Notes: generated by a model from the letters alone, not told the origin. A DNA stretch of 64,000 bases from Pyrodictiaceae archaeon (GCA_015521735.1 WANQ01000034.1:10201-74200); one strand, 5' to 3'; counted from the first letter of the stretch, positions 6,097 through 54,556 are shown. Numbers and translations are program-made.

Positions 6097-6136
6097 GAAA
6101 ATACACCTAAACCAATATACTATTATGTTATAGTAG

Positions 6137-6628
6137 CTACTTATAGAGTGATGTTACATACCGTTGTTCAAACATAGGTTTCTGAGATACTACTAGTTTA
6201 TCGATAGCTTCAACTAGTTTCTCTACATCACTTTTAAGAATTCTTCTTGAACCCTCCTTCTTTAATATAACGTAGGTTTTATCACTATATCTTAGTAAGA
6301 GTATTTTCCATTCAATCATGTTACCATACACTTTGGATACCAGTATATATGTCAGATCTCTCTTAGAAGCTACTGGAAGCATCATTACAGCATACAGTTC
6401 TTGTACATCGAAACAGTATACTTCGCCATAAGACTTATACTTTCCCTTACCCATTACGGAATAATTATTTGCATCAATGAATACTATTTTATCTGTATTG
6501 GCTACTAGATAACACATTTCCTTACTACTAGTATCTGGTATGATGTCACACATTCTCCTAAGAGAATCAATGTATGTAACTGCTTTACACTCATACTCTA
6601 AGTCTACTACTTTAATGTTGTTGTCCAC
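6137..6628 (-). CDS. Hypothetical protein (163 aa)
   Basis: Long ORF on the same strand as its neighbours. No motif recognised. Confidence 0.5.
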   Translation of the reverse strand: MDNNIKVVDLEYECKAVTYIDSLRRMCDIIPDTSSKEMCYLVANTDKIVFIDANNYSVMGKGKYKSYGEVYCFDVQELYAVMMLPVASKRDLTYILVSKVYGNMIEWKILLLRYSDKTYVILKKEGSRRILKSDVEKLVEAIDKLVVSQKPMFEQRYVTSLYK

Positions 6629-6759
6629 TCTACTTTCCCTACTATTTAACTGGTTTTAGTAAGTTTATTACTGTAACGCAAACCTAAATCATACTTTAAG
6701 GATACTAAACTGGAGATGAGATTTCAAATAGACTTGAAAAATGTGTTATGCGGGCATGG

Positions 6760-8220
6760 TTAGCCTTTTGCCACGCCTATAGGTCTAAGTCTTGCTACCA
6801 GTTTCGCTATCTTGACTTCATGTGCGACCTGGGCTACTCTATCGACATCCTTGTATGCTTGCGGAGCTTCCTCTGAGACTACTCTCCTAGTAGCTGCTCT
6901 AACGTATATACCTCTATTGCTTAGTGATGATAGTATTTCTGAAGCACTAAATCTCCTAACTGCTGCTTCACGAGACATCCATCTACCTGCTCCATGTGGA
7001 GCAGAATACCATGTTCGTGCACTCTCTGGAATACCCACCATGACGTAGCTAGCTGTTCCCATGGATCCAGGGATTAATACTACTTGGCCTATTGATTTAT
7101 GGTCCTTGGGTATTTCTGGATGACCTGGTGGGAAAGCTCTTGTTGCGCCTTTCCTATGGACTATGAGCTTCATACGTTTACCGTTTACTAGGTGTTCTTC
7201 TATCTTTGCTATGTTGTGTGCAACGTCATATATTATGTGTAAGTCGAATTTATCTGGATCTGTATGGAATACTTCTCTAAAGCTTTCTCTAACCCAGTGA
7301 GTAATTAATTGTCTATTGGTCCAAGCATAATTTGCTGCAGCACTCATTGCTGCGAAATAATCTTGTGCTTCCCTAGTATTCCATGGGACGCTTGCTAATT
7401 CTCTGTCAGGTGGTCTTATTCCATATCTTCTCATAGCACGCTCCATTATTAGCAAGTAATCGCTAGCGACTTGGTGACCTAAGCCTCTTGACCCAGTATG
7501 TATCATTATTGTTATTTGCCCTTCCTCTAGGCCTAGATGTTTAGCTATTCTTTCATCATATATTCTGTCAACCACCTGTATCTCTAGGAAATGGTTGCCG
7601 CTACCTAGTGTTCCAAGTTGTGGTGCTCCTCTTTCCTTAGCTCTACGGGATACTTTTGAGGAATCAGCTGTTTTCATGGAGCCTTTTTCTTCTATGTGTT
7701 CGGGATCTTCAGGCCACCCATATCCTTTGTCTACAGCCCAATATACTCCTTCATCTAATACTTTGTCTAACTCACTTATACTTAACCGGATTTTACCTCT
7801 ACTACCTACACCACTAGGCACATTCCTAAAGATAGCGTCTACAAGTGCTTTGAGTTTAGGTTTTATGTCATCGTATGTTAGATTTGTTCGTAGTAATCTA
7901 ACACCACAATTAATATCATAACCTACACCACCTGGTGATATTACGCCATTCTCTTCAACACTCATGCCTGCTACTCCACCAATGGGGAATCCGTAGCCTT
8001 GGTGGCCATCGGGCATTACATAAGATGCTACTTGTATACCTTGTAGACAAGCTACATTGGATGCTTGCTCTAATGTGAGGTCTTCTCTCATCTTCTTCAA
8101 TAAGAGGTCATCAGCAAATATTATCGCTGGTACACGCATGCAGTGCTTATAGCCCTTCTCTATAATCCACGTATACCTATCAATTCTCTTTAGAGGTGGG
8201 ACCATACGTAGAACCCTCAT
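6760..8220 (-). CDS. rtcB: RNA-splicing ligase RtcB (3'-phosphate/5'-hydroxyl RNA ligase)
   Basis: 486 aa with GYDINCGVRLL, GSGNHFLEIQ, HTGSRGLGHQV and PHGAGR motifs. Confidence 0.94.
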   Translation of the reverse strand: MRVLRMVPPLKRIDRYTWIIEKGYKHCMRVPAIIFADDLLLKKMREDLTLEQASNVACLQGIQVASYVMPDGHQGYGFPIGGVAGMSVEENGVISPGGVGYDINCGVRLLRTNLTYDDIKPKLKALVDAIFRNVPSGVGSRGKIRLSISELDKVLDEGVYWAVDKGYGWPEDPEHIEEKGSMKTADSSKVSRRAKERGAPQLGTLGSGNHFLEIQVVDRIYDERIAKHLGLEEGQITIMIHTGSRGLGHQVASDYLLIMERAMRRYGIRPPDRELASVPWNTREAQDYFAAMSAAANYAWTNRQLITHWVRESFREVFHTDPDKFDLHIIYDVAHNIAKIEEHLVNGKRMKLIVHRKGATRAFPPGHPEIPKDHKSIGQVVLIPGSMGTASYVMVGIPESARTWYSAPHGAGRWMSREAAVRRFSASEILSSLSNRGIYVRAATRRVVSEEAPQAYKDVDRVAQVAHEVKIAKLVARLRPIGVAKG

Positions 8221-8262
8221 TAAAAGATTTAGTAAAGTGTTAGATTTAAATATTTTTGTAGT

Positions 8263-8712
8263 ATGCCGATAAAGATGACGCCTATGTCCCCCGTATTATA
8301 CATAGTAAGGATATTAATGGAAAAACAATTAAAGGAGAGAATAAGAGTTTATGAAGAACTACTATCTGATGGTATCGAGGAAGTTCATGGCAGTCTAGAA
8401 AGGTACTCTAATGTCATGAAACTTGCTTCTGAGGAAGGGGAGATAGAAGTTGTTGAAGAAGTTGAAGTGGCATTTGACCCTAAAGTTCATGGAAGATTAT
8501 TTACTGAAAACATAGTTAGGCTTCTTAACGCAATAGCTACAAATAGCTTCAATAGTATATCTGAGTTAGCCCGCTACTTAGGACGTAATGTTGCTAATGT
8601 GTATAGGGATTTGAAATGGCTAGAACAGTTAGGACTTGTATATCTTGAACGTAGTGGTAAGAATGTTATACCAAGAATACTAGTGCTTGAATATGGACTT
8701 AGATTTTATTAA
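8263..8712 (+). CDS. Winged-HTH transcriptional regulator (MarR/ArsR-like C-terminal domain)
   Basis: C-terminal ISELARYLGRNVANVYRDLKWLEQLGLVYLER. The real start is probably the ATG at 8317 (MEKQLKE...). Confidence 0.6.
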   Translation: MPIKMTPMSPVLYIVRILMEKQLKERIRVYEELLSDGIEEVHGSLERYSNVMKLASEEGEIEVVEEVEVAFDPKVHGRLFTENIVRLLNAIATNSFNSISELARYLGRNVANVYRDLKWLEQLGLVYLERSGKNVIPRILVLEYGLRFY

Positions 8713-9873: not shown

Positions 9874-10884
9874 ATGAGGCACGGTACAATCGATATGGCT
9901 TTTAACGAAGAGAATATCGGAGAAGGGAAAGTCAAGGGCCGCACAACTAGTGAGATAGTTGAAGCTATTTCAAAGAAAATCATTGATATATATGGTAAAA
10001 CTATTAAGTATTATAAACCAGTACGTAACCCAATGCTAATGGTTAAGGAATTAAGGTCTAGGTTTAAGCTAATTGTGCCACAGAGAATAGTTTCATTAAC
10101 TATTGCCGCTTTTCTAAGTAATAGACCTGTACTATATGAAGGACCTCCAGGTACTGGTAAAACGGAAATAGGTGAAGCTATTTTAACCCTATGGGCAGGT
10201 AAATCCTCATTTGTATTACCATGTAGTAGCAACTATGATGAATACAGGGTTATAGGAGATTTCCATCCTTTAATGGCATTAAGATATGGTTTTAACGAAG
10301 AAAGTTACATACCTAGAACAATACTAGCAGCACTAGTACTAGACACTGGTGTACTTGTTGATGAAATAAGAAGGAGTAGTGAGGAATTCCAGAACCTTTT
10401 ATTAGACATCATTGATAAGAGGAGGATAATTGTACCAGAATTAAAGGCTGTATTTAAGGCAAGAGGCCAGGGATTCCAAATAATTTTTACAAGTAACCCA
10501 GAGGATATAGGTCAAGGTGAACTAAGCGATGCGTTCTTAAGAAGGGTAGTACGTATTAGGTTTTATTATCCATCTAAGGAACTTGAATATGAAATAGTTA
10601 AAATAAGAACTAGCGATATCAATGTTGAGTTGCCAAATGAGTTATTGTCGAAAATGCTTGAAGTAGTTAACATGCTTAGAGAGAAAGCTTTACACAAGCC
10701 TGGACCTGCAGATACTGTTCTTTGGGCAACCCTAGCTAAACACTTAGCCTTAGTAGCTGGTAAAAAAGTGGTTGATGTAAGAGATGTAGTTGAAAGTGCT
10801 CCAATAGCTCTCATCAAGCGTGAGGAAGATACAGATATTGTTATTAAAACTGTTTCTGAGCTTCTTGGTGCTTCACCTTGGTAG
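9874..10884 (+). CDS. MoxR-family AAA+ ATPase
   Basis: Walker A YEGPPGTGKTE and Walker B GVLVDEIRR. About 330 aa with the single-AAA architecture typical of MoxR, followed by a VWA partner. Confidence 0.82.
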   Translation: MRHGTIDMAFNEENIGEGKVKGRTTSEIVEAISKKIIDIYGKTIKYYKPVRNPMLMVKELRSRFKLIVPQRIVSLTIAAFLSNRPVLYEGPPGTGKTEIGEAILTLWAGKSSFVLPCSSNYDEYRVIGDFHPLMALRYGFNEESYIPRTILAALVLDTGVLVDEIRRSSEEFQNLLLDIIDKRRIIVPELKAVFKARGQGFQIIFTSNPEDIGQGELSDAFLRRVVRIRFYYPSKELEYEIVKIRTSDINVELPNELLSKMLEVVNMLREKALHKPGPADTVLWATLAKHLALVAGKKVVDVRDVVESAPIALIKREEDTDIVIKTVSELLGASPW

Positions 10885-12914
10885 ATATCGTTAAAAAGAT
10901 CTTGAACACAGCATTAGAGCTAAGGAAATACAATATTAGTATAGGGACTTCAGAAATAGTATCTGCTATAAACCTTGTCAAATCATACTCTTATATCTTA
11001 GGTAAAGATCCTTCAGAACTAACAGATGATGAATTAAGATTTATTCTTGAATCAGTTTTTGTTAAAAGAGACTACATTAAACCATACTTTGACAAAGCAT
11101 GGAATAACACCAATGAATTAAGTAATAATATCAATGCAGATAAGCTATTAAACCAAATAGAGAAAAAACTTAATATGCTTAAGTTAAACTTTGGAGCAAC
11201 CTTTAAATCCATTAACACTATAATTGATAAGAAGAAAAATAGAAAGCAACAGAAAATAATACGTGATGCACTATCAACCTTGCAGAGAATAGGCGTAATA
11301 AGGAAGTATAAACGAGGTTATAGAGTTGTTGACAAGAGGAAAGCCCATGAAATAGCTGAAAGTTTAGCTAGGAAAGGTTATGATAGTATAGTAAAAGCTG
11401 GCATGGATGAATTAGTAGACAAGTTAATTAGGAGACCCCATTACTTGATCTCTAAGGACGTAAACGTAATTGTATATGGAGGCTTAACTGAGGACCACGT
11501 TAAACAGATGAATACTCAACAATTACTAGAAATAGCATACTATGCTTACAAGATGGGAAATAAGAAGCTACTACAACTAGTATTAAAGGAATTGTCGCAA
11601 AGAAGTAATTTAGATGAATATATTACGGAAAAACACTTAGAGTTCCTTAAAAGAACTAGTTTTTTAACCAGCAATAATGCTTTAAGTATTCTTAAGAATA
11701 AACCGCGTTTGCTAAAGAGCTATTATGGCTCTAAGGAACTATTAACAATATTAAAGAGTCAAACCAGGAATTTCAGTGAAAACATATTAGATATACTTAA
11801 CGCTCTACCATACATTGCTGATGAACTTGATGCTAAAGACATTGAAAGGATACTAAGCAAAGTGCCGTTGACTAAGTTCCATAAGATTCCACGTAAATTA
11901 TTACGTAAAATAAAGGATCCAAAACTAGTACATGATTTAAATATGGCATTGAATGCAAGTAAAGCATTTGAGTATTTAGTGAAAGCATACAGCACTAATA
12001 CTGATATTGAGGCTAATGTAGAGTATGCAGAATATCTCTTAACTAAAATCATCAATAGTAGGCACTATACTAGTCTAGGCTACAGTGCTAAACTATTTGC
12101 CGATAGGTTAATGAAAATACTATCTAGTACAAGAGGTGAGAGCTCGTTAAGTGCAATAGTAGAGCTATTACGTGGTATGGACTTCATGGAAGCATGGGAT
12201 ATGCTTAGATCTCTTTACTTAACTACAAGTGATCAATTACTTAAAATGAAGATTAGAACGATAGCGAGTAGGCTCTGGATGAAACAACGTGGTAGTATAC
12301 GATCACGAATTTTAAACAATTATGTAAAGAGTAGTAATGAGTATGGTAGAATAGATGTTAGGGAGACTATACTAAATATTGTGAGGTTAAAGAACAATCC
12401 TATAAGGTATAGAAGTAGGGTTAAGCTAAAGGATTTGAACCTTGTAGTAGATGTAAGTGGTAGCATGTATAGGTACTCGACATGGGTTCTTCTAACAGCA
12501 TCAGCTTTCATAAAGAATGTTTCAAGAATAGTAGTTTTCAGTGAAGAACCTAAGGTAATAGATCTTAAGAAAAATAGAACAAGCATGAACACGTTGATAG
12601 ATTATCTTTTATCTATGAGGTTTGGAGGTTATACTGATATAGTTAGTGCATTGATGAAAGCTATAGAGAATACCTCTACACGTAGAATTATTTTAATATC
12701 TGATCTTAAACAAACAGTTAAAACCAATATTGATATTGTAGAACTAATTAAGTCATTATTAGTAAAAGGATGGAGTATAGCTATAATAGCACCCAAATCA
12801 GTAAATGATGTAGTATATAGAAGGATGATTAGAGATAATATACCAGTTTATGTAGTTGAGAACCCCCTTAAAACGCCTATGATATTCTATCAGGTATGGA
12901 GATCTCTTAAGTAA
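10878..12914 (+). CDS. VWA-domain protein (MoxR partner) with a long helical N-terminal region
   Basis: C-terminal MIDAS motif LVVDVSGSMYRYS. The TTG start overlaps the MoxR stop by 7 nt (translational coupling). Confidence 0.75.
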   Translation: MVDIVKKILNTALELRKYNISIGTSEIVSAINLVKSYSYILGKDPSELTDDELRFILESVFVKRDYIKPYFDKAWNNTNELSNNINADKLLNQIEKKLNMLKLNFGATFKSINTIIDKKKNRKQQKIIRDALSTLQRIGVIRKYKRGYRVVDKRKAHEIAESLARKGYDSIVKAGMDELVDKLIRRPHYLISKDVNVIVYGGLTEDHVKQMNTQQLLEIAYYAYKMGNKKLLQLVLKELSQRSNLDEYITEKHLEFLKRTSFLTSNNALSILKNKPRLLKSYYGSKELLTILKSQTRNFSENILDILNALPYIADELDAKDIERILSKVPLTKFHKIPRKLLRKIKDPKLVHDLNMALNASKAFEYLVKAYSTNTDIEANVEYAEYLLTKIINSRHYTSLGYSAKLFADRLMKILSSTRGESSLSAIVELLRGMDFMEAWDMLRSLYLTTSDQLLKMKIRTIASRLWMKQRGSIRSRILNNYVKSSNEYGRIDVRETILNIVRLKNNPIRYRSRVKLKDLNLVVDVSGSMYRYSTWVLLTASAFIKNVSRIVVFSEEPKVIDLKKNRTSMNTLIDYLLSMRFGGYTDIVSALMKAIENTSTRRIILISDLKQTVKTNIDIVELIKSLLVKGWSIAIIAPKSVNDVVYRRMIRDNIPVYVVENPLKTPMIFYQVWRSLK

Positions 12915-12999
12915 CTTCCTTGCCTCTTGTGTTTAGGAGAACTGCTTTTAAGACTTAGCTTAATATAGCAGTAAAGAATAAGCAATAACTACAGGTAAG

Positions 13000-13821
13000 G
13001 TGAAGGTCTTGGAGAACCATAAAATAGCGATAATAATAGCCCTATTAATAATTACCTCAACGAGTATATACACTATAGCACAACAGCTAATAATAGGCAC
13101 AAATAAACCTACATATACATTAGGAGATACAATAACGATCACGGGTAATGGACCTGCAAACGAAGTATTGGCATTCATAGTCCTCTATAACGACAAAGCA
13201 TTAGCTATAGGACAATTACCCATAGATGCTAATGGCTCATTCTCTACGGTATTACCACAACTTGATCTTACTACCCCTGGAACACATACGTTAACAATAA
13301 TAGGAAGCGTTGACCTTGTCACTACTAGTATTAGGAATACATCAACCTTCATCCTAGTAGTACCATCAACTAATACCACGACAACTAATACCACTCCTAC
13401 AACTCTCACAACAGTAACTGTGACAACAACTGTGACGGAAACAGTAACAGAGACCCAAACAACAACAGAAACAGTGACGACTACAAGAACTACTACTAGG
13501 TATCTTACGGAGACTGTAACGAAGATCCTAATCAATACTACAACTGTTACACTAACAAATACGGTAACAGAGACTTCAACAATTGAAAAGACAGTAACAG
13601 AGACTCAAACGGTAACAGAAACCAAAACACTAACTAAGACGGAAACTGAGACTAAAACCGTAACAGAAACCGAGACCATCACGACAATTAACGAGTATAC
13701 AAAAACCGTTACAACAACAATGACTGTTCCAGCATCATTCTATGAGAAGATTATATACCTAGTTGTAGGCTTACTTGTTGGTGCAGCGATTATTTATGCG
13801 ATAAGGATATTCTCCAGGTAG
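13000..13821 (+). CDS. Thr-rich cell-surface protein, probably glycosylated; N-terminal signal/TM and C-terminal TM anchor
   Basis: GTG start. Hydrophobic N-terminus IAIIIALLIITSTSIY, an Ig-like segment, about 120 aa of TVTET-type repeats, and C-terminal IIYLVVGLLVGAAIIYAI. Confidence 0.7.
   Translation: MKVLENHKIAIIIALLIITSTSIYTIAQQLIIGTNKPTYTLGDTITITGNGPANEVLAFIVLYNDKALAIGQLPIDANGSFSTVLPQLDLTTPGTHTLTIIGSVDLVTTSIRNTSTFILVVPSTNTTTTNTTPTTLTTVTVTTTVTETVTETQTTTETVTTTRTTTRYLTETVTKILINTTTVTLTNTVTETSTIEKTVTETQTVTETKTLTKTETETKTVTETETITTINEYTKTVTTTMTVPASFYEKIIYLVVGLLVGAAIIYAIRIFSR
13366..13728 (+). repeat. Degenerate tandem codon repeats encoding (T-V-T-E-T-x-T)n low-complexity linker
   Basis: Repeated acagtaacagagac / acggtaacagaaac units. 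The protein reads TVTVTTTVTETVTETQTTTETV...TVTETQTVTETKTLTKTETETKTVTETETI. Confidence 0.85.
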
Positions 13822-13864
13822 GGTGTATTTAAGGTAAAATTAATACAATATTTTTCACTTTAGT

Positions 13865-14344
13865 TTACTTTAATGCAACGAAGAGAGAGCTTCTAGTAGC
13901 CTTTAATCCTGGTTCACCGTGTTCAACTTTCTTGCATGTTGGACTGAATTCTCCTAGATAATGTCCTATCATCTCAGGTGTTATCTTAACTGGTATGAAC
14001 TCCTTACCATTGTATACTGCAATTGTTAAGCCAACCATTTCTGGTAATATAACCATGTCTCTTACATGCGTTTTGATTACCACCTTTTTGCCTTGAGAAA
14101 TAAGTCTACGTGCCCTCCTAATCTTTTCAAGTAGTCTTCGCTGAGCTGGGGTAAAACCTCTTCTTATACTTCTTCTAGCCCTAGCAGGAAGTAGTTTAAT
14201 TAAATCATCCATAGGCATTAATAGTAATTCTTCTAGTGTATGGCCTCTATACCTAAACTTTCTCCATTCCGGTGGTATAGGTACACCTAGTATCTTTTCC
14301 AAATCTATACTCGTTGTCATACTTCGCTTAGCTGTTGATGCCAA
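13865..14344 (-). CDS. rps19: 30S ribosomal protein uS19
   Basis: C-terminal [34 protein letters not shown]. The ORF starts at a TTG; an ATG at 14320 is an alternative start. Confidence 0.92.
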
Positions 14345-46246: not shown

Positions 46247-46489
46247 TTGACTGAGAAATACACGTGCATTACATGTGGTAGAAAATTCCCCAAAGGCCAA
46301 GGAGTCATAGTAGAAGTAGGGAAAACAATACTAACATTCCACAGCACTAGATGTGCAACAAAATTCTTTAAACTACTCATAGAAAGAGTAGAAAACAAGG
46401 ATATCATTGAAAGAGCTGCACGACAACTGATAAGAGAACTCAATGAGCAGAGAATGAAAATAGAGGAAGTAAAGAGGAAGAAAATATAG
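46247..46489 (+). CDS. Small zinc-ribbon protein (L24e/TRASH-like N-terminus)
   Basis: 80 aa, TTG start. YTCITCGRKFPKGQGVIVEVGKTILTFHSTRCATKF. TATA-like CTTTAAAAAG lies about 40 nt upstream. Confidence 0.45.
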   Translation: MTEKYTCITCGRKFPKGQGVIVEVGKTILTFHSTRCATKFFKLLIERVENKDIIERAARQLIRELNEQRMKIEEVKRKKI

Positions 46490-46526
46490 ACTCTAGTACC
46501 TACACTTATGTAATAGAGCCCAGTTA

Positions 46527-46586
46527 GGCGATGAAGACTGTGGCGGTCTCAGATGAATAGATGAAGACTTAGGAGCCCACTGAGCC
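46527..46586 (+). ncRNA. Box C/D-like sRNA candidate (weaker)
   Basis: GGC/GCC terminal pairs, C-like GCGAUGA, D CUGA (46580-83), and an internal 10-nt duplication GAUGAAGACU marking C and C'. 60 nt. Confidence 0.35.
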
Positions 46587-46752
46587 TAAAACCATTGGAT
46601 ACAATTGATATCATTTATGATAAGTTTCTCCTACTTAGTTCACTAATCAAGGAATACATCAAGAAATATTGTCATGCTGTCCTCCGAAGAGGTTAACTAC
46701 ATTATCTTCGCGAGGTAGGAGAGGCTATTAGGATCAAGAAAAAGAGAATTTA

Positions 46753-47652
46753 ATGCAATGGCTGGGATTTGAACCCGGGACCTCCGGCGTGGCAGGCCGG
46801 CGTCCTAGTCCAGGCACGACGACCGCTGTTAAACAGGAGTTAACTACGCAACTAAGAGGTCTACCGATGCCAGAGATAGATAACGAGCTTCTGGAGGGCT
46901 TCCGCAACTACTTGTTGAACAAGGTATCCGAGGATACGTTGAGAGACTATGTTAACGCTGTTGTGAAGCAAGAGTGGCCTCCCATTAAGCATAGCCATGT
47001 CAAGGCTTGGCGCAACTATGTCCAGTACTTGTTCAGTATAGGTAGGCTTAGCTGGGAGGAGAAGGCGAGGTACCTAGACTTCTTGAAGCTGCCAAGAAGT
47101 GAAAGGAAGGTAGAGGAAGAGGTACCTGTTCCACTTATAATTAAATACAAGGAGATAATACTGGGTAGCGAACTAGGAGACCTATACTACCTGCTACTAG
47201 GTGGAGCGAGGCTAGAACACCTTGTTAGAATGCTAGAATCTTATGCACCTGAAGAGGTTGTTAAACACCCTACTGGCAGGTTTGAGCCCCGATTATACTG
47301 TAGTAGACTATACTGTAGATACTACCTTGGTATCCGGAAGGGTAGTAAAAGAGTAGACTACATATACTTCCCAATAATATCCGATAGCCTCATGATACCC
47401 TGGATGACGTATCGTCAGCTACGCGATTACCTAAACAAGCGGCTAGGTATACGGGTCAAACTTTTTAGGAAATTTGTTAACCAGCGCCTTGAATCGCTTG
47501 CTGAACAATACAATATACGGCTAGACGCAGTCAACTTGATAATGAGTAGAGAACTCAGCGTTACAGGAGCACATTATCTGAATGTGAGGGACTGGGCGGA
47601 CAAACTGTTCAAGCTGTATGTTGAATGGTTGAGAAGAAACAAGTTAATCTAA
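46753..47652 (+). CDS. SSV-type tyrosine integrase, C-terminal (catalytic) fragment Int(C)
   Basis: The ORF begins inside attL (GFEPGTSGVAGRRPSPG, encoded antisense to the tRNA). It is the continuation of the Int(N) reading frame and has the integrase-like GGARLEHLVRML...GAHYLNVRDWADKLFKLY. Confidence 0.8.
   Translation: MQWLGFEPGTSGVAGRRPSPGTTTAVKQELTTQLRGLPMPEIDNELLEGFRNYLLNKVSEDTLRDYVNAVVKQEWPPIKHSHVKAWRNYVQYLFSIGRLSWEEKARYLDFLKLPRSERKVEEEVPVPLIIKYKEIILGSELGDLYYLLLGGARLEHLVRMLESYAPEEVVKHPTGRFEPRLYCSRLYCRYYLGIRKGSKRVDYIYFPIISDSLMIPWMTYRQLRDYLNKRLGIRVKLFRKFVNQRLESLAEQYNIRLDAVNLIMSRELSVTGAHYLNVRDWADKLFKLYVEWLRRNKLI
46764..46815. repeat. attL: 52-bp direct repeat (partial, non-functional copy of the tRNA-Gly 3' portion)
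   Basis: gggatttgaacccgggacctccggcgtggcaggccggcgtcctagtccaggc is identical to 54491-54542. Similarity continues imperfectly for about 11 more bp. The acceptor stem cannot form here. Confidence 0.95.
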
Positions 47653-47654
47653 AC

Positions 47655-48152
47655 TCAGCTCTTTTTCACTCTTGCATCTATCTCCTCGACCAGTTTCCCT
47701 ACTTGTCTAAGCGCAATTTCAACATCTCTCCTAGTGCACCAGGCTTCATAGAAGCATGTGTGCATGGAATTTGCGTGAGCCCATACATCGCTAATCCATT
47801 CTCCTAGCTCATCTACTAACTTGTCCTTATACAACCATAGTTCTCGGTGACTGGTTAGCCTTTTACCCTCCTTCCAGTAAGCATATGCTTTTACTGCTAG
47901 AGCACCTGCACCCCATACTTTCTCAGCAGCCTGACGTATATCCCCCTTCTCTAGCTCCTTCTTAGCTTCTTCAAGCAGCTCTTTAGCAGCATTAATGTAT
48001 TCTACTGCTCTGCTCTCCGGGTCAAGTTCTTTGACGATGAGTTCTACAACGTATTCTTCTAGGCTGAGGCCGAGTTGCTCGGCAAGCCTTCTAGCATGCT
48101 CAGCAAGATTGCGGGGTATACTAATAGACACCGCCATAACCCAGGACACCAC
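47655..48152 (-). CDS. RHH (CopG-like) domain fused to a PaREP1-family (HEPN-related) domain
   Basis: N-terminal ISIPRNLAEHARRLAEQLGLSLEEYVVELI. PaREP1 pattern ELLEEAKKELEKGDIRQAAEKVWGAGALAVKAYA...RLTSHRELW. Confidence 0.7.
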   Translation of the reverse strand: MVSWVMAVSISIPRNLAEHARRLAEQLGLSLEEYVVELIVKELDPESRAVEYINAAKELLEEAKKELEKGDIRQAAEKVWGAGALAVKAYAYWKEGKRLTSHRELWLYKDKLVDELGEWISDVWAHANSMHTCFYEAWCTRRDVEIALRQVGKLVEEIDARVKKS

Positions 48153-48518
48153 ACCTACTATAATATGGTATAGCAGGTTATATTATATGTTAGGTGCATG
48201 TACAACTAGTAGGAGGTGCCAATTCTTTCTCCCCGACGTGACCTGCAGTATGGAGGGATGGTATACTGAGGACAAGGGGAGGAGGAAGCAGGAGCAAGTA
48301 GCAGGATTCTTGCTTGAACGCCAACTATTCTTTCACGTTACCTACGTAAAGAATAGCCAACAGAAGTAGATATGCTAGCAAACTCTTTCCAGCCACAAAA
48401 GAATTGAGTTCACCCATTATCTGAGAAGAGTGTATTTCTGTAGGGTGTGTTCTTATAGTTAACGAGGTGTGCTTGATGAGTGGTGATAATAAAGGAGTAG
48501 ACAATGAGGGTGCATCAA

Positions 48519-48638
48519 GGTTCATCAGCTCTCCTATTATTATATAAGAGTACTTCACTGTACTACTCTGATATATAATAATAGGAAACTTGATGAACCC
48601 ATTCCAACCCCAAGCATGACTGGGGGTTCATCAGCTCT
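48519..48638. repeat. Iteron-like repeats in the element's 590-bp non-coding region
   Basis: 14-bp direct repeat GGTTCATCAGCTCT at 48519-48532 and 48625-48638. Inverted repeat TGATGAACCC (48591-48600) / GGGTTCATCA (48624-48633). A related TTGATGAG lies near 48473. Confidence 0.75.
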
Positions 48639-48742
48639 GAAGGAGCAAGAAGAAGCCTGGACAGAGTACATCAGCCAGAGTTAATTGCGTGCACGGCCAA
48701 GAGCTCTATTACCTATAAAGAGAATAAAGAAGACAGCTTAAC

Positions 48743-50593
48743 TTAGTGCACGATGGATACTAGTACTTCCTCTCTTTCCTTGATTACTCTTAGTCCGCGA
48801 TAGTATCTTTTTCCTTTTATTACTGTCTTCCTGTATCCCAGTCTTTCCATCTCTATGGTGAATCTACGCTTATCTACTGGTTCTATGTCTTCATTATTGC
48901 AGTAGTTTACGTATATGTTGTATAACTTGCTTGCCTCGATACGTGCACTTGGGTTTCTTTCAGCCCTGTACCCTTCAACTTTTCCTTGTAACAGATCTTT
49001 TATGAACGCGTATACTGTGTTCACATTTCTCAGCCACTTCTCTTTATAGTCTACCTCGGTCTCCTCGAAACTGAATCTCCTCCTAATCCATGCATTCCTA
49101 AATGCGAACAGAGATACTATGATTATACCCTCTTTCTCTTGTTCGGTAAATGTTTCTTCGTAGAAACGTGGGTTTAAAGGAAACTGATTGGGGAACTCTA
49201 TTACTATCCATCTCCTCCAAAATGCTGGTGTCATATCTGAGACAGGGGGTAGTTCGTTTGCTGAGAATAGCAGCTTAGCGTAGTTAACAAATGATATAGG
49301 ATCTTTAAACTTACGGTCAGCTGTTATTTCATCCTCCCCCGTTAGTGCTTTGAACCTCCCAGTATGCTTTAGTGCATGACTCGGAAGATCGGGATAAATG
49401 TTAGCTAGTTTATGGTATAATTCTGCTACTATAAACCTCTTATTCTCATCGCAAAGATCTTGAAGACTTATACTGGATACGTTCTGTGGCCCCAAAATAT
49501 CACGTATAAGTCTAAGATATGTCGATTTACCGTTTGATCCTGAACCAAGTAGCATCACGGCTTTGTGGAGATCGTGTTTAGGGTATAGCGTATAGCCTAT
49601 GATCTCGAACAACAGTATCCATTTCTCACCGACCCAATCTTTGAACGCTTTTAAGGACTTAGGGCATAGTTCCTCAGCTATTCTTTCTATGTTTTCTACA
49701 TTGGTTATCATGCTTTCATCAAACTTTACTAATCCATTTAGTTTTTGTACGGCTCTTTCTAGTTTCTCTAAAGCTAGTTCATGAGGTATGACATGAAAAA
49801 CTATGATTTCGGGACCAGGTACTTGTACTGAATCTCTTATACTCCCTGTCTTCAGGAACTTTTCCCAATCAAGTACATAGTTCTTGAAGGCTATTTTTAA
49901 TGGCTCGTAGCGGAGCTTAGTAAGTGTTTTCCTCTTTATCTTCGCTATTGCCTCATTTATGATCCACCTTGTTGTTTTCTTATCGACATTCTCGGTCTTC
50001 GATACTAGTTCTTCTATTTCCGCTACAATGTCTTTCTCACATGGCGTGTAGGCTATTTTGTCAAAGCAGAACATTCCGATTTCATACTCCTTATTCGTAG
50101 TTGTCATGTAGAATGTCTTGATAACATGTCTGCTCAGTATTGATGTAACTATCTTGTAGTATAGTTCTTCGCGTTCACTGATACGTGTTATCTTTAACGC
50201 TATTCCAGTATTCTTGCTTTCATTACGTCTTACGTTATTTTCTAAGAACTCTCTAACAATTGACGTTAAAACAAAGTTCACGTAACCTAATTTTTCTCCT
50301 AGTTTTTCTGCTACTCCAGCTCTGTATAGCAATGCTTCAAGTACATAGTTAAGATAGTAGCTATCATATTTCGCTATCTCTACTTGTGCATTGCCAAGCT
50401 TTATGGTAATAGGTAAATCAAACTCTATTTCTAAATTGTTCATGATTTCTTCTACAATTTCTCTAGCACCAGGCTTTAACGTTTTCAAATACTTTTCTGC
50501 AACGTCACGAAGACTGCCTCCTTCATTTACATGTTTCTTTGCCTGGGCAATGCTTAAATATTTATCTCTACATACACTACTATCAGCTGCCAC
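48743..50593 (-). CDS. Replication protein: D5/P4-family SF3 helicase (phage/plasmid primase C-terminal domain type)
   Basis: 616 aa. Walker A LLGSGSNGKSTYLRLI, then TADRKFKDP...LLFSANELP...FWRRWIVIEF, typical of P4-alpha/D5 NTPases. No clear primase-polymerase motif is seen in the N-terminal half. Confidence 0.75.
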   Translation of the reverse strand: MAADSSVCRDKYLSIAQAKKHVNEGGSLRDVAEKYLKTLKPGAREIVEEIMNNLEIEFDLPITIKLGNAQVEIAKYDSYYLNYVLEALLYRAGVAEKLGEKLGYVNFVLTSIVREFLENNVRRNESKNTGIALKITRISEREELYYKIVTSILSRHVIKTFYMTTTNKEYEIGMFCFDKIAYTPCEKDIVAEIEELVSKTENVDKKTTRWIINEAIAKIKRKTLTKLRYEPLKIAFKNYVLDWEKFLKTGSIRDSVQVPGPEIIVFHVIPHELALEKLERAVQKLNGLVKFDESMITNVENIERIAEELCPKSLKAFKDWVGEKWILLFEIIGYTLYPKHDLHKAVMLLGSGSNGKSTYLRLIRDILGPQNVSSISLQDLCDENKRFIVAELYHKLANIYPDLPSHALKHTGRFKALTGEDEITADRKFKDPISFVNYAKLLFSANELPPVSDMTPAFWRRWIVIEFPNQFPLNPRFYEETFTEQEKEGIIIVSLFAFRNAWIRRRFSFEETEVDYKEKWLRNVNTVYAFIKDLLQGKVEGYRAERNPSARIEASKLYNIYVNYCNNEDIEPVDKRRFTIEMERLGYRKTVIKGKRYYRGLRVIKEREEVLVSIVH

Positions 50594-50949
50594 TCCCCTC
50601 CTTCCACCCCCTCATTCTCTTTCGGGAGGTTGCATCAACACTTCTTTACACGTCTATTCTCACACAAAACAGCTATTTAAGGTGTGCGGTTTACCGTCTG
50701 AGTCTCTATATCCTTATATTCAATTTTCCTATGAGGAGATTATCAATAAACTTATTAGCAAATTATTGGGGGATACGAGACTATATGTTGAGGCTCTTAG
50801 AGTTCTAGCAGGAGTCATAGCATCTAGAAACAAGTACTCTAAGACAACAGTAGAAGTTGCCAAGGAAATACTGAGAACACTAGACGAAGCCACCACTCCT
50901 CACCTAAACTGGAAGACACTAATACACTAGTTCTAATAGCATAGTAATA

Positions 50950-51327
50950 ATGTGGGAGATGGTAGTAGTGTTCAAGGCTAGGAGGGGGTTGGAGGACTGG
51001 GAGAAGCCTCTACTAGCAGGAGCATTGTATATGGTTGACCCACGACCCGAGGAAGAGGTTTTCAGGGAAATGGTGGAGCTTGTTGGATTGGAGATGGCTG
51101 AGCGGATAGCTAGTCTCGTATGGAGGATGTGTTTCGGGGAAGGCTATAGTCTTGAAGAGTGGGCTAGTATACTAGAGAAGCTGAGAACACTGTCTCCATG
51201 GGAGTGTATTTGGAGGTTCCAGGAACTAGTTGAAGGAGGGCTTAGGAGGAGACATGAAGTGGAACCAGCAAGGATAAACCCAGTAGAGTTGCTGAGAACA
51301 GCTTGTAAGCTACTAGGACTAGGCTAG
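50950..51327 (+). CDS. Hypothetical protein (125 aa), element-borne
   Basis: GC-rich ORF inside the integrated element. No motif recognised. Confidence 0.45.
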   Translation: MWEMVVVFKARRGLEDWEKPLLAGALYMVDPRPEEEVFREMVELVGLEMAERIASLVWRMCFGEGYSLEEWASILEKLRTLSPWECIWRFQELVEGGLRRRHEVEPARINPVELLRTACKLLGLG

Positions 51328-51427
51328 TGGTTACCCGCTACTAGTATCCTTAATGCTATGTATAATGCTAGGGCTATGGTAGGCGTCGTCAATAATAGTG
51401 TACTGGCTTGTTTAAGAAACACTAGTG

Positions 51428-52933
51428 TTATCTCGTGGTATTGGCTTGTGTCTGGTTTTTCTCCGCCATCTCTATTCGTTTCAGTAGGTTCTCTACCATT
51501 TTTATTGATGCTTCTAGTTCTAGTACTGGTACATCTGGGTATAGTTGTCTACGGTACTCTATGTATTTTTCCACCAGCCATACTAGGCTTGGCTCTCTAC
51601 CACCCCTAATCCACCTCCTACTCCATGTCTCGTAGTCTTCTATTTCTCCTAGCAGGTTCCTAGCCCAGTCTAGGGCCTTCAACCTACCTGTAGCGAAGGC
51701 TTCGTCTAGGTTAGGGTATATACTAGCGTTTACTAGTAGGTGGGGTATTTCGCCATACCAGTCTACGTAGATTGTACGGTTAACGCAGACTCTCTCATAC
51801 TGTTCATCCCAGTCTAGTCTAGGCAGTATAATGTCAGCGAAACCCCAATCACCAAGGTATTCAGCGTAGGGTGGTACACCAGCATACCATGATAAGTGCC
51901 CAATAGCACACCCCTTATAGAGTAGTATGGTTACACCCGTAGCTTCTACTGGGTATATGTTGCTCCAATACCTTGTCCTCAAAACTATTTCACGAGCAAC
52001 CGTGTCTATGAACGGCTTATCAACCTCGTTGAACCAGTATCTTGCCTTTGATACACCGTTTGGGTCTCCATGTGCCCATACAACACTTGGTACTGCTACT
52101 TCTACTATTATTGGGTTCATAGCCTTGTGTTCTCTTAGCCATCTTACAGCGTCTTCGTTAGCTATTGTTCCTTGTAGGTCTACGTAGCCCCATCCTAGCT
52201 TAATGAATCTTGGGTCGTAGCGTCCTAGTGATAGGATTACTGGTCTCTTCAAGGATATGTTTCTAATCCACCACGCTATTCTTAGTGCATTGTCCTTGTT
52301 TGCCTCATAGAATATGGCTGTAACGTTTATCTTGTCTCCGCTTACTTCTTCTAGGGCTACGTATATGTATGGCTTGTCTGGAACATATTTTACGTATAGG
52401 TCTCTTGTCCAGAATAGTGATTCAACGCTACTAGTCCTAATCAATGCGTACTTGTTGAACGGGTTTCCTAGACAAACCATGCTTGTTAGAGCGTACTTGT
52501 AGCAGTCTTTTCCTAGAGTACCCGCCTCATACCACCATATCATCTGGAATATTGTCCTGTCAATAGCCTTGCTCCCCTTCAACCCAACCTTATTCCACCA
52601 CTCACTACTAGTCAACCCCTCCCTAACCACGATACTCCTCAACGGCTTGGGTGGTGGAGGCGGTACATTTCTTGGGAGGACTGGTGGTAGACGGTTATCG
52701 TATACTGTTACCAAGCCCCCACTAGTATTACCTGATACAGCCTTCGTAACCCTCTCAATAGCTTCCTCAACATTCCCCCAACGCTCAGGGTGAAGTAATA
52801 GTGGTACACCAACAACCATGAGAAACACGGCAATACTAAGCAGTACTACTCCTATAGCCTTTGCAATCCTCTTACCCTTTCCACCACCTTCTCCTTGAAT
52901 AGTTTCTGTGTCCTCACTCAACTCTTTCACCAC
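51428..52933 (-). CDS. Membrane-anchored (N-terminal TM) large extracytoplasmic protein, element-borne
   Basis: 501 aa. N-terminal RIAKAIGVVLLSIAVFLMVVGVPLLL, followed by a Trp/Tyr-rich soluble domain. No catalytic motif recognised. Confidence 0.55.
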   Translation of the reverse strand: MVKELSEDTETIQGEGGGKGKRIAKAIGVVLLSIAVFLMVVGVPLLLHPERWGNVEEAIERVTKAVSGNTSGGLVTVYDNRLPPVLPRNVPPPPPKPLRSIVVREGLTSSEWWNKVGLKGSKAIDRTIFQMIWWYEAGTLGKDCYKYALTSMVCLGNPFNKYALIRTSSVESLFWTRDLYVKYVPDKPYIYVALEEVSGDKINVTAIFYEANKDNALRIAWWIRNISLKRPVILSLGRYDPRFIKLGWGYVDLQGTIANEDAVRWLREHKAMNPIIVEVAVPSVVWAHGDPNGVSKARYWFNEVDKPFIDTVAREIVLRTRYWSNIYPVEATGVTILLYKGCAIGHLSWYAGVPPYAEYLGDWGFADIILPRLDWDEQYERVCVNRTIYVDWYGEIPHLLVNASIYPNLDEAFATGRLKALDWARNLLGEIEDYETWSRRWIRGGREPSLVWLVEKYIEYRRQLYPDVPVLELEASIKMVENLLKRIEMAEKNQTQANTTR

Positions 52934-53021
52934 ACAATAATATGTAAAAGTAATAGCGGGTAACAGTTATTCCAAGTTATAGAATACGTGAGGAGAGAAA
53001 AAAGCTTAACCCCGAAGGAGG

Positions 53022-54071
53022 CTAGAATAAGCCCTTAGACCTATTGAAGTATGTTTCCTCGTTCTCCTCCTTGACATGCTCTCTCGTCACTATTGCCCCA
53101 GCTCTCTTCTGTATCATTAGTCCTTCTTGTTGTTGTTGTTCCTGTTGTATTCTCCAGACCTCTTCCAGAGTATTTCCTCTACGTACATAGATGATTATAC
53201 ACCAAGTCTTGGATACTAGATCCTCGAAGTACCTGTAATAGTAGTGTTCACTTGGGTACCTGAACCAGCCCTGCTCTTTTAGCAGGTAGTGTATTCTTCT
53301 AGCTACGTCGTGGCTCCCATACATTCTCCTTATAATATTGTCCGCCTCGTGTTCGCAGTGTAAAGCTAAAAACTCGTCGTGTATTCCTAGTTGCTCAAAT
53401 ATCTCTGCTAGCTTATTAGACTTAACCATGTGCATCTTACTTGTTTTCTCTTCGTAGTAAATGAATGCATCATCTTTCCTGGCTACTAGTATACCTGTCT
53501 GCCTAATACCTAACAATGTATGCGCTAACAAGTCTACTGCCCGCCACTTCTCCCCCTGCTCTATGAGCTGTCTTGCTACCGCTACTACTCTTTGCACTGG
53601 TTTAGGTAGCTCCTCCACCACTTTCTTAGCAGATTGCCCCTTGGCACCAGAGCCTATGACTTGATCTCTAGTACGAACTCTTTTCCAGTCTATACTTCCC
53701 TTGACAAATGATTCGTCGAGGATAACTGGCTTATACCATCCGTTAATGTCTTCAATAAGCCCGTAGAGTTCTAGTCGTTTCAGTATCTTCCACGTCGCGT
53801 TCTTGCTCTTAACACCCGCAATTGCCTGATGAAACTTATAGATGTCCCTAAACTTGACAAGGCGTCTTCTCTTAGTATAGACCTGCTTCAAGAACCACCA
53901 AATCGTGTACGATGGCCCCTTCTCGTAGTAGAGGCGCCTACCAAGGGACAACAAGTCTCTTGTAACATGAATCCCCGAAAACACTACACTATCACTAAAT
54001 CTTTTCCAAACTCGCACTGCAGCCACCCCACCCCACAGAACTGGTATAAAAAGACCGCATGGGGTGGACAC
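53022..54071 (-). CDS. Hypothetical protein with a wHTH-like segment, element-borne
   Basis: 349 aa. NATWKILKRLELYGLIED resembles a winged-helix recognition region. Confidence 0.5.
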   Translation of the reverse strand: MSTPCGLFIPVLWGGVAAVRVWKRFSDSVVFSGIHVTRDLLSLGRRLYYEKGPSYTIWWFLKQVYTKRRRLVKFRDIYKFHQAIAGVKSKNATWKILKRLELYGLIEDINGWYKPVILDESFVKGSIDWKRVRTRDQVIGSGAKGQSAKKVVEELPKPVQRVVAVARQLIEQGEKWRAVDLLAHTLLGIRQTGILVARKDDAFIYYEEKTSKMHMVKSNKLAEIFEQLGIHDEFLALHCEHEADNIIRRMYGSHDVARRIHYLLKEQGWFRYPSEHYYYRYFEDLVSKTWCIIIYVRRGNTLEEVWRIQQEQQQQEGLMIQKRAGAIVTREHVKEENEETYFNRSKGLF

Positions 54072-54170
54072 TATGTTACAACATTCTCTTATTTATGCCA
54101 ATGTATTCTTGGCCGTGGATGACGTGAGGTTTTTCAGGGTAGGTAAGAGTTAACTACAATCAGGTGCATA

Positions 54171-54545
54171 GTGGTGAGGCAGGTATCTACTAGACTAGGC
54201 GGTGCAAGGTTGACCCTTGTCGTGAAGCACATCAAGGGAAAACTATACGTATACGATGAGTTCCGTGACCCTGTGACCAGGAAAGTTCAGACAATATACA
54301 TAGGCCCATTAGAGGAGATGGCTAGAGTATACCAGTTGTACAAGTCCTTAGGCAAGGTGGAGAAATTAACGAAACGCGACCTAAGACGCCTCGCCAGAAT
54401 TCTCTTGGAGGAATATGTTAGAAGGGTCGAACAGGTAGTTAAATCCAAGAAGCCTGAAGGAGAACCTATTGGAAAAGTGGTGCGGCGGCCGGGATTTGAA
54501 CCCGGGACCTCCGGCGTGGCAGGCCGGCGTCCTAGTCCAGGCTAG
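54171..54545 (+). CDS. SSV-type integrase, N-terminal fragment Int(N)
   Basis: 124-aa ORF ending inside attR with ...RRPGFEPGTSGVAGRRPSPG, the same peptide that starts Int(C). It reads antisense through tRNA-Gly. Confidence 0.8.
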   Translation: MVRQVSTRLGGARLTLVVKHIKGKLYVYDEFRDPVTRKVQTIYIGPLEEMARVYQLYKSLGKVEKLTKRDLRRLARILLEEYVRRVEQVVKSKKPEGEPIGKVVRRPGFEPGTSGVAGRRPSPG

Positions 54546-54556
54546 ACGACCGCCGC
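54478..54556 (-). tRNA. tRNA-Gly (anticodon GCC), CCA encoded
   Basis: Manual fold of the minus strand: acceptor GCGGCGG/CCGCCGC, D arm GUCU..GGAC, anticodon stem CCGGC/GCCGG with loop CUGCCAC, T arm CCGGG-UUCAAAU-CCCGG, discriminator A plus CCA, then a T-run. Confidence 0.92.
54491..54542. repeat. attR: 52-bp direct repeat inside the intact tRNA-Gly gene
   Basis: Identical to 46764-46815. Confidence 0.95.

Follow-up and report, generated by a model that had tools for sequence, protein, structure and literature searches.

Integrases of the SSV type, among them those of SSV1 (D-335), pTN3, and pT26-2/TKV, have a PF16795 domain, target tRNA genes, and are encoded by a gene (int) that contains the attP site and is split on integration, an arrangement described for several archaeal systems (PMC8371274, PMC7253208, PMC2926602). 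Integrated pRN-type plasmids of Sulfolobales (pXQ1 and the pST elements) and plasmid pXZ1 encode an SF3 helicase of the RepA type and lack genes for virions or conjugation (PMC2926602, PMC8371274). Here we describe an insertion that resembles both kinds of system, found in 64,000 nucleotides of a genome deposited as Pyrodictiaceae archaeon (GCA_015521735.1 WANQ01000034.1:10201-74200; this whole stretch is hereafter called the window). It is very probably an integrative plasmid-like element of 7,727 bp, carried by a Desulfurococcaceae archaeon and inserted by its own SSV-type integrase.

The tRNA repeat and the split integrase gene

The window contains two copies of a perfect 52-bp direct repeat (attL and attR cores; Table 1), which can be prolonged to 67 nt at 96% identity (46760-46826 and 54487-54553). 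The perfect repeat corresponds to nt 15-66 of tRNA-Gly(GCC), beginning in the D-loop and ending at the third base of the 3' strand of the T stem; counting 52 perfectly matched bp, or at least 67 with mismatches allowed, this att-homologous stretch is unusually long compared with those of the SSV family. Close relatives of the host, itself represented by a Desulfurococcaceae metagenome-assembled genome (MAG), were identified through exact protein matches. In two of these relatives, L006 (GCA_015522295.1) and L007, the site is empty, and the genes for an Lhr helicase, an 80-amino-acid (aa) protein, tRNA-Gly, an 83-aa protein, and tRNA-Glu follow one another uninterrupted. The left alignment of L006 with the window ends at 46826 and the right one begins at 54473; because these alignments overlap in the tRNA alone, the repeats bound the 7,727-bp insertion exactly. 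The attL junction was seen again in two other assemblies (L004 and L005), and the element interior in Logan contig L001 and ENA scaffold L025. Neither the exact Int(N) protein nor the exact Lhr helicase is on record as a called gene. The G+C content of the element, 43.1% compared to 36.7% in the rest of the window, is reached by none of 164 equal-length host windows, and its tetranucleotide distance likewise lies beyond the host range.

The two parts of the integrase gene lie at opposite ends of the element, with the open reading frame (ORF) for Int(N) adjoining the rebuilt tRNA, as described for other split integrases (PMC2926602). The stop codon of Int(N) is contributed by the host tRNA D-loop, and the element-derived coding sequence of Int(C) starts at 46816. 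Both ORFs encode the peptide GFEPGTSGVAGRRPSPG in the same frame, and joining 54171-54542 to 46816-47652 yields an open frame of 402 codons without a stop. The rebuilt protein matches PF16795, the archaeal phage integrase family (E = 4.6e-14), as well as the integrase PHROG phrog_5127 across the junction (residues 81-399). Structures of the SSV1 Int catalytic domain align with it (E about 8e-6) so that FRKF and HY coincide, and SSV1/SSV19-type integrases are 23-26% identical over 80-96% of its length. Its motif R256...K339xxR342...Y378 fits the SSV-type signature R...KxxR...Y (PMC8371274); K339 is present, and the other three residues do not vary across the family alignment. Of 27 homologues retrieved from the protein collection, the majority are ~300-aa Int(C) fragments encoded in Desulfurococcales MAGs. 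Two homologues are full length, P0011 (397 aa, 46% identity) and P0015 (421 aa, 42%), and their alignments run through both halves and the intervening peptide encoded by the tRNA. Judged by its sequence, the rebuilt protein is an SSV-type tyrosine integrase with a predicted recombinase function. At 402 aa it is longer than the 335-aa SSV1 integrase, and an in-frame start codon opens its int(C) part, as for pTN3-like integrases (PMC8371274).

PF16795 with its signature, an in-frame split int, a tRNA repeat, and an empty site, the sequence features that mark an SSV-type element, are all present, and the locus is almost certainly a genuine integrated mobile element. The original prediction, made from the sequence of the window, was of a 7.8-kb integrated element in tRNA-Gly(GCC) with an interior richer in G+C than its flanks, in which ORFs of 124 and 299 aa share a peptide in one frame and would rebuild an integrase of ~400 aa. 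The repeat, the rejoined integrase, the base composition, and the empty sites confirm this account: the frame stays open when attP is reconstructed, the rebuilt integrase finds its Pfam and PHROG families, fusellovirus integrases, and unsplit homologues, and the two empty relatives give exactly the predicted boundaries. The perfect 52-bp repeat also stands, but it covers the middle two-thirds of the tRNA, short of its 3' end, and not the 3' two-thirds as first described.

Table 1 Features of the element in the window. Coordinates of the last three rows refer to the named related sequences.
Feature	Coordinates	Strand	Basis
Displaced native tRNA-Gly(GCC) 3' end, decayed	46751..46763	-	Alignment with L006/L007 and remnant L010
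Int(C), C-terminal catalytic part of the integrase, 299-aa ORF	46753..47652	+	PF16795; SSV1 integrase structures 3UXU/3VCF/4DKS
Pseudo-tRNA at attL: element-derived 5' part, att core, decayed host 3' end	46754..46829	-	ARAGORN; Rfam 35.1 bits
attL core, left 52-bp repeat copy	46764..46815	.	Repeat comparison
PaREP1 (HEPN-T clade) protein, 165 aa	47655..48152	-	PF05942 at 1.4e-27
Imperfect hairpin and direct repeat, candidate replication origin	48519..48638	.	DNA fold
RepA-like SF3 (D5/P4-type) helicase, 616 aa	48743..50593	-	DUF5906, D5_N, TIGR01613
Divergent intergenic region, helicase gene/orf125 operon	50594..50949	.	Sequence
125-aa ORF (orf125)	50950..51327	+	67% identical homologue in L023
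501-aa protein (orf501), one N-terminal transmembrane helix, proline-rich linker, ORFan	51428..52933	-	Hydropathy
349-aa protein (orf349), N-terminal winged helix and alpha/beta C-terminal domain	53022..54071	-	AlphaFold2 (AF2) model, pLDDT 83.5
Int(N), N-terminal part of the integrase, 124-aa ORF	54171..54545	+	Aligns with N-termini of unsplit P0011 and P0015
Functional tRNA-Gly(GCC)	54478..54556	-	ARAGORN; Rfam 61.9 bits; identical to empty-site tRNA
attR core, right 52-bp repeat copy	54491..54542	.	Repeat comparison
L014 element	9976-14121		tRNA-Val(GAC), 53-bp repeat
L019/L033 element	5588-8708		tRNA-Gly(CCC), 46-bp repeat
L018 element	about 10000-12509		Adjoins tRNA-Thr(TGT)

A host tRNA completed by the element

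ARAGORN and Rfam each call tRNA-Gly(GCC) at both ends of the element. The right copy has a perfect GCGGCGG/CCGCCGC acceptor stem and an encoded CCA. The host contributes its 5' part and promoter side; its final 13 nt with the CCA (54478-54490) and the ensuing T-run are element DNA lying within the region that codes for Int(N). This right copy is the functional tRNA, with a 3' end donated by the element. The left copy has four non-canonical cloverleaf pairs, and the native 3' end displaced there reads TAATGCAATGGCT on the + strand, compared to TGGTGCGGCGGCC at the empty-site relatives: six transitions in 13 nt and a small adjoining indel. This displaced end also gives the Int(C) ORF its in-frame ATG. 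We attribute the 13 nt missing from the repeat to decay, because the repeats of L014 and L019 begin at the tRNA 3' end, the usual arrangement. We also considered whether the odd left flank could be the Int(N) end of an earlier tandem element and rejected this idea; the flank can be aligned with the empty-site spacer and has a similar length, and the inferred ancestor of the displaced end is the true tRNA end save for three G-to-A changes.

Putative replication module

The helicase contains D5_N and a C-terminal winged helix and is similar to PDB 7OLA. It is 39% identical (E = 9e-92) to residues 353-836 of pRN1 ORF904, the helicase and winged-helix part of that protein (~490 residues), and its next-best matches are pHEN7, pDL10, pRN2, and pSSVx. 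We found no primase-polymerase (prim-pol) domain in it, neither as a PF09250 match nor as a tblastn match to the prim-pol part of ORF904, and tblastn of pRN1 ORF56 (CopG), pRN1 ORF80 (PlrA), and the small pSSVx ORFs against the element gave nothing below E = 1. The prim-pol-SF3 RepA and the CopG and PlrA genes by which the pRN plasmid family is recognized are thus absent. Relatives of the helicase form a large family, abundant on small contigs from hot environments, that includes helicase-only and prim-pol-fusion forms.

An imperfect hairpin lies 144-224 bp downstream of the helicase stop codon. Its 28-nt arms (48519-48546 and 48572-48599) enclose an AT-rich centre, it folds as DNA at -28.7 kcal/mol (z = -7.0), and a 14-bp direct repeat, GGTTCATCAGCTCT, occurs at 48519-48532 and 48625-48638. 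Since the origin stem-loop of pRN1 occupies an equivalent place downstream of repA (PMC4234260), the hairpin may serve as a replication origin. The likeness of the hairpin to the pRN1 stem-loop is one of position (a stem-loop of ~80-95 nt within about 225 bp downstream of the helicase gene; PMC4234260), and unlike the pRN1 module this one has neither a prim-pol domain nor a co-transcribed CopG gene. The divergent region upstream of the helicase gene contains a possible 54-aa ORF (50766-50930, + strand), a gene call made on the identical Logan contig L001.

Backbone and cargo

The gene tail-to-tail with int encodes a PaREP1 protein that also gives a weaker HEPN match; PaREP1 has been placed in the HEPN-T clade, with the conserved His kept and the Arg not (PMC3710099). 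The same order, int followed by a tail-to-tail PaREP1 gene, recurs in at least ten other loci in our genome and metagenome scans, and we therefore read int and PaREP1 as the conserved backbone of these elements and the helicase and the orf349-orf501 module as variable cargo. This conserved partner sets the integrase subfamily apart from other SSV-family enzymes. In other tRNA genes the subfamily occurs in elements of 2.4-4.1 kb; these small elements (L014, L019/L033, L018, and others) carry a PaREP1 gene in the tail-to-tail position relative to int and lack a helicase. The genome and metagenome integrase scans returned split or decayed copies only, in none of which Int(N) lies immediately upstream of Int(C).

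Several further sequences touch on this subfamily. Additional small integrated elements were seen in L031, L035, L037, L038, L040, and L041, and L014 and L019 have in common two other small ORFs, encoding '...EITIQPL.LTIT...' and '...PDYMDFLLEYCEP...' proteins. An unsplit 421-aa integrase of the same family is encoded on L002 (ENA ERZ584659, 7,534 bp) with a radical-SAM gene and ORFs of 464 and 793 aa; all genes of L002 lie on one strand, it has no terminal overlap, and it is possibly part of a virus genome.

The orf349 protein is a homologue of ORF2 of pGT5, the rolling-circle plasmid of Pyrococcus abyssi (41% identity over 208 residues, E = 2e-48). Rep75, the pGT5 replication protein, is absent from the element, and the two hosts belong to different phyla. 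The orf349 family comprises 53 representative clusters. Foldseek searches of PDB and BFVD matched its winged helix alone, leaving the alpha/beta domain without a structural match. We rejected orf349 as a Rep-Arvir (DUF7845) or Rep_trans initiator. Rep-Arvir proteins have an N-terminal DUF7845 (PF25227) catalytic domain resembling TATA-binding protein (TBP), followed by a central winged helix-turn-helix (wHTH) (PMC13107129), whereas none of 27 orf349 family members matches PF25227, the wHTH of orf349 is N-terminal, and Foldseek gave no Rep_trans or TBP match.

Only two homologues of orf501 were found among 5.8 billion proteins, Pfam, PHROGs, PADLOC, and further family searches gave it no match, and its AF2 model, built from three sequences, was unusable (pLDDT 32). 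For orf125 there was no domain or family match in PHROGs or in Pfam, also at relaxed thresholds. The orf349, orf501, and orf125 genes occur together in L023, where their products are 86, 68, and 67% identical to those of the element and the integrase is just 30% identical. Ratios of nonsynonymous to synonymous divergence (dN/dS) against the L023 copies are 0.17-0.24 for the three genes (0.18 for orf125). The L023 region (GCA_054027615.1, 6181-16109) combines this module with a distant SSV-type Int(C) and an AbiEii-like gene. Just upstream of it, a DUF4258/DUF2283 toxin-antitoxin pair lies between 34-bp direct repeats resembling part of tRNA-Thr(UGU); one tRNA may thus have received several insertions in succession.

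In Pfam, PHROGs, and PADLOC the cargo matched no virion, conjugation, or defence family, and functional PHROG matches were limited to the integrase and the helicase (primase/helicase families). Scans of IMG/VR with integrase and orf501 alignments returned nothing; GenBank phage records hold no relatives of orf349 or orf501, and among them the integrase matches SSVs only.

The element thus departs from pXQ1, the pST elements, and pXZ1 in its host order, Desulfurococcales, in a helicase without prim-pol, in the lack of CopG (ORF56) and PlrA (ORF80), in an integrase only about 25% identical to those of SSVs, and in its cargo of PaREP1, a wHTH protein related to pGT5 ORF2, and a membrane ORFan. 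The original prediction of a likeness to pRN/pXQ1-like elements with different cargo was fair in this respect, as the helicase is homologous and prim-pol, CopG, and PlrA are missing. Its D5/P4-type SF3 helicase was borne out by the domain matches and by the homology to ORF904, its membrane-anchored 501-aa protein by a single N-terminal transmembrane helix, and its absence of capsid and conjugation genes by the Pfam and PHROG searches. Other parts of the description need to be narrowed. The protein called RHH-PaREP1 has the PaREP1 domain (PF05942), but a ribbon-helix-helix (RHH) at its N-terminus has no Pfam match even at relaxed thresholds; one of two supposed wHTH-like proteins, the 349-aa one, holds up, but the 125-aa one finds no support; and the 'repeat-rich non-coding region' is reduced to a single strong hairpin and the 14-bp direct repeat.

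Age, decay, and selection

A decayed copy of the element occupies the same site in a relative of ~95% identity (L010, GCA_054032475.1, 10515-12484 on a 274-kb contig, with matching L011). Its attL is degenerate, and its Int(C), which has lost 255 bp by deletion, shows 14 indel columns and contains stops. Nearly all of 48880-54344 is gone, as are ~110 bp holding the hairpin, roughly the interval between the 14-bp direct repeats; PaREP1, the last 45 helicase codons, the Int(N) end, and attR are retained, PaREP1 and attR intact. The window and L010 have in common three derived G-to-A changes and an indel in the displaced tRNA end, and the two copies therefore stem from one integration. Synonymous divergence (dS) between them is 0.15-0.16 in the flanking host genes and 0.22 in PaREP1, which has a dN/dS of 0.06 against the L010 copy. 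By this comparison of sequences, the insertion is older than the split between the window and L010 lineages. Logan contig L001 (SRR10312489) is equivalent to window 46922-54504 and ends 3 bp from 46919, the left breakpoint of the L010/L011 Int(C) deletion; deletion variants may be present in that sample alongside the intact form.

In the window copy all ORFs are open and the att core is kept at 52 of 52 positions; the L010 core has acquired one insertion and six substitutions. Had the window core decayed like the spacer and the neighbouring 13 nt, we estimate that it would show ~6 changes. Because the ORFs are open and the core is unchanged where that many changes are expected, the sequences argue for continuing selection on the recombination and replication genes; dN/dS is 0.06-0.24 for PaREP1, orf349, orf501, and orf125.

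The history of the locus differs from that of the surrounding genome. Most flanks of the window are separated from the empty-site L006 by a dS of 0.03-0.04 (surrounding genome 99-100% identity), and in the 450 bp left of attL identity to L006 drops from 97% to 56%. Between a conserved small-RNA-like block and the tRNA, the spacer of the window is 75% identical to that of L010, with substitutions strongly biased to transitions (31, compared to 7 transversions), and L006 is 62% identical to each. The spacer therefore groups the window with L010, in conflict with the flanking genes, which group it with L006, and we conclude from this conflict that one allele, either the occupied or the empty one, was transferred between lineages when the whole locus underwent homologous recombination.

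The small-RNA-like block itself (46523-46600, + strand) is conserved in the window, L006, and L010 inside the fast-evolving spacer 46290-46763. Its sequence (GGCGATGA ... CTGAGCC) and the D'/C'-like boxes inside it resemble those of archaeal C/D-box small RNAs, and Rfam gives a weak CD-box match only (sR17, 19.6 bits, E = 0.59). The 80-aa protein beside the insertion site (46247-46489, + strand) is Cys-rich, at least 90% identical in relatives, and has a weak, sub-threshold match to ribosomal protein L24e (E = 2e-4).

Proposed life cycle and alternative explanations

We propose that the circular form would carry a single gene for the 402-aa integrase, with attP as a near-complete antisense copy of the tRNA at about codons 104-127; the reconstructed attP is itself called tRNA-Gly by ARAGORN. 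Recombination with the chromosomal tRNA gene would split int, leaving Int(N) at attR and Int(C) at attL, with strand exchange expected at the anticodon loop by analogy with SSV1, and would rebuild the tRNA at attR from the 3' end, CCA, and T-run of the element. As an episome, the element would replicate through its pRN1-RepA-like SF3 helicase acting on the hairpin 3' of the helicase gene, with priming presumably left to the host because the helicase has no prim-pol domain. PaREP1, the partner of this integrase subfamily, could act as a regulator or an addiction-type module, and the pGT5-ORF2-like wHTH protein and the membrane protein would form a transferable accessory module. Inheritance has probably been mostly vertical or by whole-locus exchange through homologous recombination, and excision would require a full-length integrase in trans or complementation between Int(N) and Int(C).

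Several observations weigh against this proposal. No circular (attP) form was found, the closest full-length integrase in the protein collection being 46% identical, and an exact-pattern search for the attP junction had no match in JGI metagenomes, which exclude the samples holding the element. None of the contigs with helicase or integrase relatives (L002, L003, L028-L030) has a terminal overlap, so none can be called circular. As a rule, a split SSV-type integrase can excise its element only if an intact copy is supplied in trans, and the one described here may be inactive (PMC8371274). Precise excision would yield a mismatched tRNA, with C53-A67 and C5-A71 mismatches (cloverleaf numbering) and two G-U pairs, for which the predicted cloverleaf energy is -22.4 compared to -34.8 kcal/mol. 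With no primase, CopG, or PlrA gene, autonomous replication stays a proposal, and three of the seven proteins are without an assigned function. Gene conversion by a tRNA copy, not selection, could have kept the att core perfect; we doubt this because the L010 core should then have been protected too, and it was not. The original prediction held that the element may still be excisable. Its intact ORFs and perfect att core speak for this, but the mismatched tRNA, the missing attP form, and the split integrase speak against it, and on balance we lean slightly towards an element that can still be mobilized.

The rival that survives best is a permanently trapped island retained by the host, which would have lost its mobility through the split integrase and the decayed tRNA end and would be kept for useful or addictive genes such as PaREP1 or the membrane protein. 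The insertion predates the split between the window and L010, its displaced 3' end has decayed, neither attP nor a close full-length int was found, excision damages the tRNA, and PaREP1 is intact, at a dN/dS of 0.06, even in the dead remnant. Selection at the level of the host, however, hardly explains an intact helicase, both Int halves, and a perfect 52-bp core in the window, while the L010 copy lost its helicase and filled its Int(C) with frameshifts, and the composition of the element is still clearly foreign. We consider a trapped island possible but unlikely.

Since excision damages the tRNA, retention would be favoured, and we tentatively suggest a lock-in: the host would depend on the element for the 3' end, CCA, and terminator of its intact tRNA-Gly(GCC), selection on the recombination module would continue, and PaREP1 would act as a second, independent device for retention or addiction. 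This combination is speculative, and we think it doubtful as a whole.

A provirus or virus satellite like pSSVx or pSSVi, with orf501 and orf349 serving in packaging or the virion with or without a helper virus, is improbable. Such a reading would draw on the integrase family common to fuselloviruses, the helicase match to pSSVx, the full-length integrase relative on the 7.5-kb L002 with its one-direction genes and 793-aa ORF, and the three ORFs that could not be annotated. The element is nevertheless only 7.7 kb, compared to the ~15-kb genome of a fusellovirus, and VP1/VP3 capsid and VP4 fibre genes, like any other capsid or virion-protein match in Pfam or PHROGs, are absent. Apart from the integrase matches to SSVs, the searches of phage records and IMG/VR were likewise negative, the ORFs specific to pSSVx find no counterpart in the element, and the only named relative of orf349 is on a plasmid, pGT5.

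Finally, although the source is a MAG, a repeat of 52-67 bp can mislead assemblers, and L001 spans the interior only, there is a negligible chance that a free plasmid was misjoined to a chromosomal contig through its tRNA-like sequence, given that the attL junction recurs in L004 and L005, that its specific decay is common to L010/L011 with both junctions on the 274-kb contig, and that a decayed displaced tRNA end is not expected from a chimera.

Implications

The accepted mechanism is unchanged by this locus, as the splitting of int on insertion is already well known. The element adds a well-delimited Desulfurococcaceae case to the SSV-type 'suicidal integrase' elements, which so far come mostly from Sulfolobales and Thermococcales, and it brings together three hitherto unconnected parts of the archaeal mobilome, namely a helicase of the pRN type, ORF2 of pGT5, and PaREP1, the conserved neighbour of int. 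One locus in three natural states (empty, intact, and decayed) gives an unusually clean view of the fate of an element after capture, in which the displaced tRNA end and the spacer decay, the dead copy keeps PaREP1 but not its helicase, hairpin, or integrase, and the intact copy keeps a perfect att core.

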